A stretch of 59,099 nt of DNA, the filler included, from Dimargaris cristalligena (Eukaryota), in assembly GCA_003614675.1 (NCBI GenBank). It is 4 parts of 4 records of this genome, joined end to end, with 100 filler letters (N's around TTAATTAATTAA, not from the genome) between each part and the next. Parts side by side here need not be neighbours in the genome. Positions count along the whole stretch, not along the records: positions 44,421 to 59,099 come from ML002942.1; 3 more parts are not named here. One strand, 5' to 3'. Position numbers and translations under genes: made by a program. The notes beneath the pieces were generated by a model. That model ran no database searches, was not told the DNA's origin, and was given only the letters and a program-made list of their open reading frames with translations. Shown here piece by piece: positions 14,831 through 56,274 of the stretch; position 1 is the first letter of the stretch; each line of letters starts with the position of its first letter.

Positions 14831-15531
14831 GAGGCAATCAATGAAATGGTGTGTTCTACTCGAGGTGGGGGGGGGGGGGGGGGGGGGTTGGGATGAATGA
14901 TCTGCTCGTTCTAACGTGACGGGTGAACTTAGTTTGAACTTTGACTAATTCAGAGGGTTCCGATTTAGGACGGGCGAGATACTGAAGTTGGATGTCCACT
15001 CCTCCTATCTTTATGTGCCCTTAGCTTAAGACCCCGGCTTGTTTAGGAAATTAAATAAAGTTTAATGTAAAAATCTTGAAACCAGCTCAGATAGTATTAA
15101 TACTGCGTTATAGGGCAGTGGGTCAGGGTTGAAACACACTTTCGAAGGGGTAGAGGGTTAACGGTCAATATTAGTGAGGGGAGGGGGATTTCAGCCGTTA
15201 TTCCACAGTCCCTACAAGAACTGGGGCTCTATGGCTCGAAACCATTTTAATATTTCTCTTCTACTACTACCGAGCTGCCTCCACAAGACCCACACGATGC
15301 AGCAAGCCGTGCGGCCACATAGTGTCAGCTGGTCTAGTTCAATCGCGGTATCTTGGAGGACCGGGTGCTAAGCCAAAAGGGCCCTTGGGCCGTGGTAGAC
15401 TCAATCCGGTAAGTGCCCGCATTCCACTGAAACCATTTTACCTTGCTTAACTTACTGCCAATCACATAATACTTACCCAGTCTCTTTTAATTGCGCATTG
15501 GCTTAGTTTTGTCTGTTTGCCTGGCCCACCC

Positions 15532-49945: not shown

Positions 49946-51382
49946 TCTGTAACGGGGATATTCCGGGGGAAAAGGGAAAGGTGCGAAGGGGAGAAGCTAG
50001 AGAGGATTCGCCTGTCACACAAGGACTACGTGGTGCGTGATCTTCGAATGTAACGAAAAGCGGGATTGTGTATAATAATAAAAATATAGAGTATAGTGCG
50101 GACTCCTTAATGGGGGTATATAAGTAGGTAATGAGCCGAGGAGAGAGCAGCTGGACACAAGTTTCGGCGGCCAACCAAAGAGGAGTATATATTATATAAA
50201 AGGAGAGAGGGGCCGGCGGTTGGTTGGCTATGTTAGTCACGAAACCACCGTCAAATATACTGTGCTGCTTGGGGGATTTTTCGAAGCTGTGGTGGGGCGG
50301 CAGTAGCCTATAGTAATAGTTATTCATAGACCGGGGGCTGTGTGCGCTGTAGTGGTGGAGTGTGTGGAGAGACAGCCCCTGTAATTCGACGAGACCTTTA
50401 GAGCTCAGGGGAGGGGAGGGTGCAAAGCCCAAACCAGGCACTATAGAAAATAATCCAGGGGAAGGAGCCAAAAAGCATTAGCCCTACAGCAACTTGGCCA
50501 TTGGTAGAGCGGTTTAAGCTGCTTGATATGAGGCCCACCAATGGCGTTGAATGAGTCATACATAGGCCGAGGAGGAGGGCCAAGTATCTATACCGCCAAA
50601 TGGTGGCTTTCCAAGAATATAATGCCTATTTTATTGAGACATGAAGAGTTCGGGGTGTTGCGTGTAAGAAACCTAACGTATATCTCTTGTTCTTTAGTCG
50701 GCTAACAGGGGCGGTAGCTGCTTGCCAATTGCAGGGCGGCGGGATGCCATCAATAGCAGGGTTTAGTGTCAACCTGAACTGCGAGTGGTTAACGGGGTGG
50801 TACGTTGAAAAGGGGGGGAGACTCGCCTTCGATAGATGGATGAGCACACCGACAAGAAGGGCGCCGGGCTTTCCCATTTTATAGATCGATTGAGGCCTTT
50901 GGGATGTGACAATGATAACACACCTTTCCCCTATGCGGGGTGTTTTCAACGGTAGGTATATTTGGTTATTGTCTTGGGAGTGGCCGCCACGGGGCCAACT
51001 CGTCCGGTTTCCGCATTTGCATGGTATCAGTGGAGCAGTTGGTTAGACGATGGATGCACAATGGTAGGCCGTGCGACCGGGTCTTCTAACATCGATTCTA
51101 GGGCCGATTAGAGTACTCAAAAGAGGAGGAGGGGTATGGTCGTAGAGTAAAAAATGGAGGCGACAAATGCTCGTGTAGCCCAACCGGTATGTAAATAAAT
51201 TAACATAGGTTGTTGATGTCGCGCATCCTTCCTCCCTTCTGCCAAGGTAATACCAAACCACTAGGCCAAACAGCTTTTATAAATACCGGTGCAACGAGAT
51301 GCCCGTCTACCTCTCCTCGTTGTTCTTGCTGACTTTAGAATTAAACGCTCTTCTTTCATTGTTAGATACTTTTATTTAGCAA

Positions 51383-51470
51383 ATCTATATCTATATCTAT
51401 ATCTATATCTATATCTATATCTATACCTATACCTATACCTATTTTACAACTGCCACTGCCACTGCCACTG
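51383..51470 (+). repeat. (ATCTAT)n grading into (ACCTAT)n, then (CTGCCA)n, upstream of the zinc-finger gene
   Basis: Directly visible hexamer tandem arrays. Confidence 0.9.
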
Positions 51471-51499
51471 CCTCGGTCTTGTGTTTTATATACATCAGA

Positions 51500-52508
51500 A
51501 TGGGTTTAGCTATCCAAGTCGGTCTATTGGTGCTGCTACTAGGCGGAGGAATCCCGCGCTCGTCTGCTGGGGTTATCTCCACCCAAGGGGGCGCCTCCTA
51601 CCACCGCGAACCCCCACCGCCCACTGACTCCGACTACCGAGTCGACCCGATGAGCCTAGACTCCATAGCCAACGAGTTCCCTCAGCGCCAAAGGTCTTCG
51701 CCGTCGTCGGTATCGTCGACATCATCGGTACCACGGTTAACTTGGCCTTCCCACCCTGAGACCGACTGGACCATCTCGAAAGGGGACGCGGAGGCGAAAA
51801 AGGGGGTGGTGGGAATTAATTCCCTCCTCAACGAACCTAACCCGACGGGCGGAGGTAGTATATCCGCCGAACCCTACCCCGAATTCCCCCCCGGTGTCCC
51901 AAGGGCCCGTCACTCTTCTCTGCCCCCCCCCCACGGAGGCTCTAACCGAATCACTGTCCCCAGCTAACAATCACCTACAACCGACCCAGCCGTTCCGCCA
52001 CTATTCACCCCAATCAGACGAGTGGAATAATTACCGTCCAGTGGCGGACTTCCCTTTTTCGAACCAGGTACCATTATTGAATCCAACAGTGGGCCTGAAC
52101 CCAAACCCAAACCCCACCACCACTACCACAACTACTACCGCCTCCGCTAGCACCCGCCCGTACTACTTCTTCTCGCCCATCATCGCTGGGAGTGGACCCC
52201 CACAGCCGTATCGGACTGGTCAGACTCGCGATCGTCAACCACCATCGCCTTCTTCTTCCACCCCATCCCATTCCCGTAAAGGCAAAAAGAGAGCCCCCCA
52301 AAAACAGAAGCAAGCAAAGCTCGACTGTAAATTTTGTACTCGACAAATCTCCACCGCCATGGCCCTACGTGGTCACCACAAGATGCACGAAGCCGACCTA
52401 GGAGAGACCTGCAATAAATGTCAGGGCTACTATCCCAATAAGCAATTTAAGACACACAAGAAAGAATGCTGTGTTGTCCCTCCTTCTCCTCCTTCGGCAA
52501 CATTTTAA
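51500..52508 (+). CDS. Signal-peptide-bearing C2H2/C2HC zinc-finger protein, about 335 aa, split by a one-base frameshift in a C10 run (51923-51932)
   Basis: MGLAIQVGLLVLLLGGGIPRSSA signal-like; RKGKKRAPQKQK basic patch; CKFC-x12-H-x3-H and CNKC-x11-H-x3-C; C9 instead of C10 fuses the two ORFs. Confidence 0.7.
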
Positions 52509-54711
52509 TTTTCTAATTATTATTCCTCCCGCCATCCCCTGGCTGGCCTGGTTGCTAGCCAACCCAGCTGTAACCCCGAGGCACCTTATCAAGAGCAGCC
52601 ACAGGTGTCAACTGGGGTTCGTTGGCCCCTCCAAGGTTAGGCCTATTACAAAATGGGCTCAGTTGACCACGATATATATATATATATATATATATATCTC
52701 GCATTGTCGATATACCCTTAAATTAAACTATACCATCTAAAACTGCTCCTATTGGTAAGCCCAATTTGGTAACAACTGCTCAAGAAGCAATAGTCAGTTT
52801 GTTAGATTATAAAAATTCCTCACTACATACCCCGCTCAAAAAAGGTATACTGCTAGACGATTGCCCCGCCTTTTTATCTCTTGTTTCCCCTTTAAGCTGC
52901 TTTTGGTTTTTATTATCTTGCAATACACCTGTTCCAGTATAAACTAGACGCATTAAATTGGCTACTATTTAACGGCCCTCCCAGTCAAATAAATTTTATC
53001 TTAACCTATTATAGATTTAGTATCTCTACTATCTTTGCCCAATTATATTCTCTTTGTTTGGGTATGGTGTTGTAATTATTTACTTAACTATGTAGGCATC
53101 ATGGGTTGCTGATGATTCATACTGACGTTGGCTCATATGGCTTGATATCTTTCGATGGGTTAACCGTTATTGGCCATAATCGCTATAGGTTGTGTTTGGT
53201 ATATTAGTGCCATGACTCATGCAATTTTCTAGGAATGCGTATTATCACAAATGACGAAACTCCGAGTCATGTCGAGTGACTGATCTCTGTCCTTCAATGC
53301 CACCGCCCATTCCCCCCAAAGTATTTAAATTGGGAGTTCTAGGCGAGTTGAAGAGAGAATAGGTTCAGAGGTTGCTACTGCGCCACTAGGGCCGCCATGT
53401 ACCGCCCCTGTCAACGGACTCACGACCAGGCCACCACAAGCGCCTACTCCTCCCTTGGTATCTACTGGGTCCGAGACCACTTGGGTGAAATGCAAGCCAG
53501 CTGTATAAAGTTTTACATGATTTGTGTATGGGAGAGTATGTGGGAGAATAACCATTTTAACCAGTAATGTTGGCCCCATCTAATGGATTTTCCGTTATAC
53601 AGCCGGGATGAACTTCTCCCACTTCGTCAATTAACAGGGATCATGATGAGTGCTCCAGCATAAAAGTGAATGGTTTCCTCACCCCGATATGGCTCCTTAG
53701 ATGGCTACATTCCTATCCGCTTATTATTATCTTCTATATGTTAAGTATCATTCCTACTTCATCGCTAGAGAAAGGTAGACGTTATGGGGTGCGGTCAAAT
53801 GGTTTACCCTTTAAAAATAAAGGTGGTCAAAATAGCGAAGTCCTATAATAGGGTCTGTTATGGATTTGGCATGGGCTCCACTGTGCTGCGTTACACATAA
53901 GGTAGGCTATATCGACGCCCACTCAAAGGCTAGGCATGTTCAAAGTCCCCCCTCTTTCTTTTGCGCCTTTCGTTGGCATATTACATCTACAATAATTGTG
54001 TAGCACGAAGGACCAAGCCGTTAGAGTTGTATTGGGCGGGTAATGGATAATCGAAAAAAGTACATCATACCCGCCTACTAGTCACCTTCGTCATTGGCTT
54101 GGCATAACCAGGCCCAAGAATTATCCAGCCGCTTCAAAGCCCCTTTCGAGCAAAAGATTCGTAGGGGAAAAGTTCAAAACAGTGGTGTAGAAATTAAAGT
54201 GCAATGCGGATGGGAAATGGATGAGAAATGTATTTCTACCCTGTAAAGCCCATTTATCCAATGGACCTGCTGCTTTACACCCCCATCGAGTTTCCCTCAA
54301 ACGGACGATGTTGCACAATTGTATTCCGACTACCATTTTATAAGGCCTCTCGTATAAAAATGTAGCCTCAAGGCCAATAGTGGCGCTCGACTCTGGTTTG
54401 GGGTTACATCCTATATGGTACTTTAGCTTTTCGCCTACAGTCGCCTGCCTACCATCCCAACTCTTGTGTATATTTTCCGCCGAATCGGCTAAAATCTGGT
54501 CCGCCATACCTACAAACGTGCCAATGTATCGCTTCGGCTTACATTGCAGACGTTTATATAAGGATGCCCAACGCTCACCATATCCCAAACCACCCAACCC
54601 ACTATACTGCTTCTCTTTCCTCGACCCTATCTACCCTCGTCCAATATTGTTAATATTTTCCTTGTTCGGAAGTCTCTCTTTCTGTCTACCTTATAGCCCT
54701 GTCCACCCCGT

Positions 54712-56274
54712 ATGAAACTGTCCCCCGTAGCGTGGTTGCTGATGGGCATCGCCCCTGTCTGTCACGGTGCCACACCCAATTTAAAAGCGTCATCCCTGAT
54801 TAATTTACCAGTCGAAATTGATGATATGGTACTCGACAGGTGCGATGCGACTAGCGAGTATAGGCTCAGTCAAGTTTGTCAAAAGTGGCAATCTACATAC
54901 TTGGGACGGGAAGGCAATAGAATGCGGAAGGTAAGTAATAAAAGTATATTCTATGTGCATAATTAGGTATGGTACGTCTCGCTATTTCCCATGCACCTCT
55001 TTAGGGTACTGCCATTGCGTCGCTTAGTTTTGCTAGTACCCTAAAATGGTGCCATGAACTGTCAGGCCTACCACTCCGCCAATTAGCTCTTTTGCCATTG
55101 AGTTTTTCCTTTTGGATATTCCTCAACCCACAGGGCCTCTTGCTGTACCTATCAAATCCAGTCAATCACATTTCCAAAATTATCTAATTCACCAACATCT
55201 TTCTAACTGTATCTATTGATTAATCCCCTCCGAATCTACACAAAACACTAATGTCAGGTGATTATCGAATTATTAAGTCAGTCAACCCCCACAGATTGGC
55301 GGGTTCTCATTCCCGAAGACGACTTCAGCACCCTTTATGCTCTACTAGCATCCGACATTCGTGTCAATTTTTATCAGCGCCGCATCTGGGAGGGTCTAGA
55401 GACATCGGGCCATTCCCGGGATGGTGGTTGGCAAGGTAAAGAACGTCTGGCCATTCGATACCCCCACAGCCGAGCTTTGGTCAAGGAGCTGGTCCCAAAA
55501 TTAGCCCGGATTGCCGCCTGGGGGGATTTGCCCAGTGCCCCGCTTCACGAAGTACAGCCGAACAAGCTACTCACAATAGCACCACTGTATTGGGCTATAC
55601 AAGAGGGAAAGACGAGCGCCGTGGATGTCATCATGGACCAGATCATGCTAAGGAGTAACTCACTCGCCCTGGGCACGGCCATTGCCAATCAATTAGACGG
55701 CGACATGGTGTATCTTGCCGGCGTTTTAGCTCTCCCCCAAAACGTTCAGCAGCAAGTACAGCAATCCAGTCGTGGCGGTGACTACAGTAATGTCACTGAC
55801 CCCCAGCTTATCCCGGACGATTGGCAGGATGTTATTTTAACCATCTGGGGCGATTCTTTCCGATTCGACCTGCTGTGCTCGGTGGCGGTGCAGTACATTG
55901 TCCAAGGGGATGCAGCTGGCCTGGCCAAACTCAAGACATGGACGACCCAATTTCTGAAAAATTGGGACGTGGGGTTAAAGCAGTTGGTTTTGGCGGTGGC
56001 GGCCGAGACTGGCCATCTGGCCCTATTGGATGACCCCCGAGTGGCCCCCTTGTTCGAAAACTTCCAGCCGGTACTTCCCCAATATATGTTGCGCTGTATG
56101 GAGGCCAATGGGTGGATGAAGGCAGTCGAGCATTTTGAGAAGCAGTGGAATGTTATCAGAGCGGACAAGTCTGTACCCACTTACAAATGTCAAGACCAGA
56201 TGCCCAACACGGCACCTCTCAGCCTGAATTCCCAGGGGGTCTTGACCTTGACCTATATTCCTATGGTTCTTTAG
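54712..56274 (+). CDS. Secreted F-box protein (family member 4), 411 aa; exons 54712-54930 and 55258-56274
   Basis: Signal peptide MKLSPVAWLLMGIAPVCHG-A; F-box SLINLPVEIDDMVLDRCDATSEYRLSQVCQKWQS; GTAAGT...TCAG phase-0 intron; ankyrin-like APLYWAIQEGKTSAVDVIM and LAVAAETGHLALL; TATA-like TTTATATAAG near 54553. Confidence 0.85.

Follow-up and report, generated by a model that had tools for sequence, protein, structure and literature searches.

A family of signal-peptide zinc-finger genes in Dimargaris cristalligena, with a possible role inside host fungi

Do two adjacent open reading frames (ORFs) of Dimargaris cristalligena, the first opening with a signal-peptide-like segment and the second ending in zinc fingers, form a single gene, and if so, what might a secreted-type zinc-finger protein do in a fungus that parasitises other fungi? 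Dimargaritales are described as parasites of Mucoromycota and some Ascomycota that act via a biotrophic haustorium in the available text of PMC9866270. The molecular control of host fungi by haustorial fungi is almost unstudied. The locus lies in a stretch of 59,099 nucleotides, filler included, that was analysed here as a whole (the window). Based on sequence comparisons, we assign it to an expanded family of secreted zinc-finger proteins whose most likely role is that of effectors within the cells of the host fungus, a reading to which we give a probability of roughly 0.62.

Gene structure and the interrupted reading frame

The features named in a preliminary description of this locus are all present in the sequence (Table 1), including the signal-peptide-like start, the SSAG site, a middle part rich in Pro, Ser and Thr (P+S+T = 41%), the basic patch, a C2H2 and a C2HC finger and the INSLLN motif. 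The window contains a single match to the tandem finger pattern, and 400 base shuffles contain none. A TATA[AT]A element is found at the aligned place in the focal gene and its three close paralogues (4/4), which favours transcripts carrying the signal peptide. A short, non-conserved upstream ORF of 26 codons starts at 51299, 20 bases past the TATA box, and the presumed 5' untranslated region contains a TA/TAC-type microsatellite (51376-51483) where the contigs of all sequencing runs are cut. On contig C735, the focal gene is flanked by a HIS7-like gene on the opposite strand and by an F-box-like gene.

Table 1. Coordinates, in the window, of the focal zinc-finger gene, its features and its F-box-like neighbour.
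Feature	Position	Strand	Remark
TATA-like box	51278..51285	+	TATA[AT]A; lies about 220 bp before the ATG
Focal zinc-finger gene	51500..52508	+	single exon, about 335 aa if the C run is in frame; start ATG at 51500, final stop 52506-52508
Signal-peptide-like segment	51500..51568	+	residues 1-23; SSAG at 51560-51571, putative cleavage after SSA
First amphipathic motif, MSLDSIAN	51650..51673	+	MSLDSLIN, MSLASIIN in paralogues
VGINSLLN, candidate Tup1-interaction motif	51809..51832	+	IxIxxLL / [VI]xx[IL][LM] type; INSLLN at 51815-51832
C10 homopolymer	51923..51932	+	frameshift site; length varies between runs
Stop closing a 155-aa product	51965..51967	+	in use when the run is C10
Basic patch RKGKKR	52275..52292	+	candidate nuclear localisation signal
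C2H2 finger	52326..52388	+	C-x2-C-x12-H-x3-H; ligand pattern
C2HC finger	52410..52469	+	ligand pattern
F-box-like neighbour with signal peptide	54712..56274	+	two ORFs; context only, separate from the focal gene

The two ORFs are one gene interrupted by a run of ten cytosines, without an intron. An intron joining them was rejected, as no candidate has a good donor site and because the DNA is colinear with the paralogues C1001 and C8, in which the frames are open across the break. The C run was compared between contigs of four out of five sequencing runs (X1, X2, X4 and X5), three of which, X1, X2 and X4, may have supplied the window sequence and are not independent. The X1 contig has the same C10 as the window, i.e. 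the frameshifted form, the X2 contig has two extra C, the X5 contig has one C fewer, and the X4 contigs end at the run. With the run length of X2 or of X5, the distance between the ATG and the final stop is divisible by three; the ORFs, which the preliminary description allowed might never be found joined, are thus joined in frame in the contigs of these two runs. As real alleles and errors of sequencing or assembly look alike in contigs, the focal copy is not callable as intact from them, and D. cristalligena may be non-haploid according to the available text of PMC10386755. The focal copy is probably intact in some strains, and we consider it quite likely that it is functional in at least some. 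Elsewhere in the window, G/C homopolymers of 11-21 bases at 14867, 4076, 4447, 22010 and 46716 may be further sites of frameshift or assembly problems.

Searches of the same genome identified three close copies of the focal gene. C293 reads ATA where the start codon should be and has lost one Cys, C8 carries an in-frame TGA and a frameshift between the fingers, and C1001 is an intact 247-aa ORF that has lost its fingers; C8 also has RKGK at a position similar to that of the focal basic patch. A counting method, rough on such short stretches, gave dN/dS values between the focal copy and these three paralogues of 0.16-0.22 for the signal peptide (24 codons), 0.41-0.82 for residues 25-131 and 0.67-1.14 for the fingers, and signal-peptide values of 0.52-0.59 among pairs of damaged copies. 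By this measure the signal peptide of the focal copy is under purifying selection, while the values for the fingers would fit relaxation as well as diversification.

The family could be real and the focal copy nevertheless a young pseudogene, with the frameshift as a true common allele in a subfamily that is dying out. C10 in both the window and run X1, the damage in 3/3 close paralogues and finger dN/dS values near 1 would fit such a history, as would the state of 37 further loci, about 19 of which seem broken, their family-type signal peptide lying upstream in a different frame or ahead of a stop (these were picked by eye and may include genes with introns). We nonetheless regard it as unlikely, since the gene is in frame in X2 and X5, since the X5 contig differs from the window by no substitution in the focal ORF as against five in the flanks (and two in the F-box gene), and since only the focal copy among the four keeps its start codon, all eight zinc ligands and a low signal-peptide dN/dS.

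The wider family and its neighbours

Family members were drawn from 30 of the 39 matches of a protein search and from 150 scored candidates, out of 270, of a search with PF00096. Keeping those whose zinc fingers have a Met 50 or more residues ahead of them left 64 distinct ORFs; all counts are lower bounds. N-terminal hydropathy is bimodal among them, with 37/64 ORFs at or below 1.58 and 27/64 at or above 1.92 (one of these a fragment), by a score of our own that also fires on F-box helices and has a single positive control (L139); a propeptide search for positive-control signal peptides gave one gene only. At internal Met positions, used as a null, the score reaches 1.6 in 3 of 290 cases. The focal signal-peptide-like segment scores 2.96, compared with at most 1.58 in 23 non-secreted-type finger ORFs, a contrast set chosen by eye from the 37 low scorers as conserved-type factors (two via a looser filter). 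This score and the low dN/dS of the segment both support a putative cleavable signal peptide. Many of the remaining low scorers are inner fragments of broken family copies.

At least 26 intact ORFs have a signal-peptide-like start (hydropathy 1.92-3.74). They are single ORFs of 223-590 aa, all pass a Pfam C2H2 cut-off (26/26) and share a layout of signal-peptide-like start, low-complexity middle and one to eight fingers, the latter counted by a pattern of our own definition. Signal-peptide-like start and finger stand in one frame in these 26 relatives, and in the focal gene in the X2 and X5 contigs but not in the window or X1. A genome search for paralogues combining a predicted signal peptide with C2H2 fingers, suggested at the outset as a check, thus finds these intact genes and about 19 more that are apparently broken. 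The N-termini of the family fall into 13 BLAST clusters, which argues against a single chance N-terminus that was copied.

Several members keep TGEKP-type linkers and recognition helices resembling those of the parasite's own non-secreted factors; L039 matches the non-secreted L044 at 51% over 59 residues, and a two-finger group matches L050 at 38-51% where L050 is the best non-secreted match. These helix-similar secreted/non-secreted pairs may be of the Crz1, Msn2 and Nrg1 types. L039 (G000:C378, positions 166-1935 of the locus) encodes a 590-aa signal-peptide protein with three canonical fingers and is closer to L044 than to the secreted members, so that a separate recruitment is likely. Long arrays, unusual for a fungus, are present in the secreted-type L023, L026, L028 and L030, which have 6-9 tandem fingers with TGEKP-type linkers. 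In a further set of arrays (alignment A3: L010, L013-L015, L017, L019, L021, L025 and L035), the last finger has an extra conserved Cys in its helix and the penultimate finger often has no fourth ligand nearby, and the array may possibly end in an interleaved double finger.

The family is easy to miss, as exact public protein records exist for only 4/26 intact ORFs and two members are annotated in one assembly as finger fragments of 51-55 aa without the signal peptide. Two D. cristalligena records are exact matches, RKP34425.1 for the ORF of one paralogue and KAJ1993419.1 for another family member. No orthologues in other species were identified among 27 candidates, and a broader search gave 161,041 matches, the best 150 of which are all long multi-finger proteins of at least 800 aa. 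The sequence record suggests birth-and-death or fast turnover of the family, which, with its at least 26 intact signal-peptide zinc-finger genes in a fungus parasitising fungi, is apparently undescribed.

The preliminary description also placed a secreted F-box gene 2.2 kb from the focal gene. A gene with a signal-peptide-like start does begin at that distance downstream on contig C735, but its F-box falls below the Pfam cut-off (E 0.0026). The two genes are separated by a short high-copy repeat (53480-53740), with contig depth above 10,000 in all four runs and many loose ends. A signal-peptide-like segment precedes the F-box-like region in about 10 of 28 PF12937 matches, in the neighbour and in two relatives, a class judged by eye with a score that also fires on bare F-box helices. 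The signal-peptide F-box-like family comprises about 13 loci of G000 (L119, L123-L125, L130-L132, L135-L137 and L108-L110), whose products are probable ubiquitin-ligase-hijacking effectors. These genes support the second class of proteins with intracellular domains envisaged earlier, and with it the notion that several types of intracellular domain are exported by this fungus.

Fingers, candidate corepressor motif and proposed mechanism

The first focal finger was initially described as a perfect C2H2 finger, which holds for its ligand pattern but not for the remainder of the sequence, as the fingers are divergent and match no Pfam family (0 at E<=0.05). The best PDB sequence match of the fingers is SALL4 (E 0.0008); Foldseek gave no match at E<=0.001, with top rows that are all C2H2 proteins, and an ESM Atlas search gave generic C2H2 clusters only. 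An AlphaFold2 model built on a 10-row alignment contains two beta-beta-alpha units (mean pLDDT 75), the second finger being weaker. The canonical linker is absent, and the pair carried by the focal subfamily corresponds to fingers one and two of the longer non-canonical array that is present in C467, among others.

Mat-alpha2 is reported to bind the WD40 domain of Tup1 via an IxIxxLL motif (available text of PMC4943189 and PMC10163088), and [VI]xx[IL][LM] has been proposed as a fungal Tup1-interaction pattern, on weak statistics and with an enrichment that its author calls not robust (PMC4943189, same limits). The early impression that INSLLN resembles motifs of fungal repressors is borne out, as VGINSLL fits both the IxIxxLL spacing and the proposed pattern. 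Its counterparts are MDISSLLN in C1001 and MPISSLLN in C8, while C293 is degenerate at this site; the [VI]xx[IL][LM] motif (INSLL in the focal gene, ISSLL in both C1001 and C8) lies outside the DNA-binding domain, and a second similar motif is found upstream of it. The published pattern occurs in 4/4 members of the subfamily, which are related sequences and include C293 through a match elsewhere in its sequence, and is not significantly enriched across the family (7/26 intact members, shuffle mean 3.9, with 87 of 1000 shuffles reaching 7). A relaxed form, [ILV]xx[LIFY][LIV]N, occurs in 8/26 members compared with 0/1000 shuffles, a result that we do not count as a test since the pattern was written after the data had been seen. 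Similar motifs open the non-secreted finger ORFs L060 and L041, the former locus (G000:C73:13100-18600) holding a four-finger, non-secreted gene twice in tandem, in nearly identical copies that start with MDIHTLLN. The Tup1 WD40 domain of D. cristalligena is 69-70% identical to that of three Mucorales, and thus a motif suited to the parasite's Tup1 should also suit that of these Mucorales.

In the proposed mechanism, the focal protein would enter the secretory pathway, be released at the haustorium with loss of its signal peptide, and enter the host nucleus via its basic patch. There, its two fingers would dock on DNA or on a chromatin protein, and its IxxLLN motifs would recruit the host Tup1 corepressor. 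For the family as a whole, we favour host-delivered nuclear effectors with moderate confidence from sequence features. Action of the focal subfamily by Tup1-based repression is a more tentative proposal. The same caution applies to a scenario in which the parasite's own C2H2 factors became several dozen secreted mimics that enter host nuclei, some of them imitating conserved fungal regulators in their recognition helices, and the focal subfamily silencing host genes via host Tup1. It is very improbable that the slippery C run acts as a switch by which the focal copy yields either the full-length protein or, as in C1001, a product with the motif but no fingers.

The proteins might instead be secreted for a role outside the nucleus, e.g. 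binding zinc, RNA or a host protein, which the non-canonical fingers of the focal subfamily and the presence of a basic cluster in only 8/26 intact members would suit. We consider this improbable, given the DNA-binding-type linkers and nuclear-factor-like recognition helices of other members and the combination of basic patch and corepressor-type motif in the focal copy. That the hydrophobic start is an uncleaved anchor of a membrane-tethered transcription factor of the parasite itself is more doubtful still, for although the focal N-terminus has no basic residue ahead of its hydrophobic core and an Arg behind it, the core is short and runs into a Gly/Pro/Ser/Ala stretch such as cleaved peptides typically have, and most members start with M-R/K and end their signal-peptide-like segments in small-residue sites. 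If the preferred reading of host-delivered nuclear effectors is true, fungus-on-fungus biotrophy has reached a strategy of plant pathogens, on a larger scale. Laboratory yeast could serve to test each step, from secretion and nuclear import to DNA binding and dependence on Tup1, since the machinery of the host is itself that of a fungus.

Comparison with known systems

In the accessible literature on Dimargaris and other mycoparasites, no report of secreted C2H2 effectors was found, although supplements or the original genome paper could name such domains in secreted proteins. The available text of PMC9866270, PMC9391592 and PMC10386755 contains no match for zinc, and the C2H2 text in the accessible part of PMC10406608 is not about secretion. 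Similarly, no eukaryotic C2H2 protein aimed at a fungus is among the effectors in the available part of PMC12886408. The same part describes Mycetohabitans TAL effectors, which likewise bind DNA and are aimed at fungal nuclei but are bacterial and consist of TAL repeats, and TOPLESS-binding effectors of plant pathogens, which also hijack a corepressor of the Groucho/Tup1 family but do so via EAR motifs on plant proteins. The motif of Mat-alpha2, as far as described in the sources above, has the same spacing as the focal VGINSLL, which stands in a secreted-type protein.

Secreted C2H2 nuclear effectors as such are already known from rice blast. MoHTR1 and MoHTR2 of Magnaporthe oryzae are described as C2H2 proteins that, once secreted, enter the nuclei of rice and act as repressors of promoters (available text of PMC7672089), and MoHTR3 is a further system of this kind (PMC10189765, likewise in part). 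From these texts, MoHTR1-3 resemble the focal gene in combining a signal peptide, predicted in the focal case, with a C2H2 finger and flanking basic residues in a fungus with a biotrophic interface, and resemble the reading favoured here in the proposed repression in the host nucleus, a likeness that carries no claim of homology or of membership in that group. The host is a plant for the MoHTR proteins and a fungus for D. cristalligena. Compared with the 10 C2H2 candidates among 20 given for Magnaporthe in the text available, D. cristalligena encodes at least 26 intact genes with up to eight fingers, and whereas MoHTR1 and MoHTR2 are described there as having no intrinsic repressor activity, the D. 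cristalligena subfamily carries a candidate corepressor motif.
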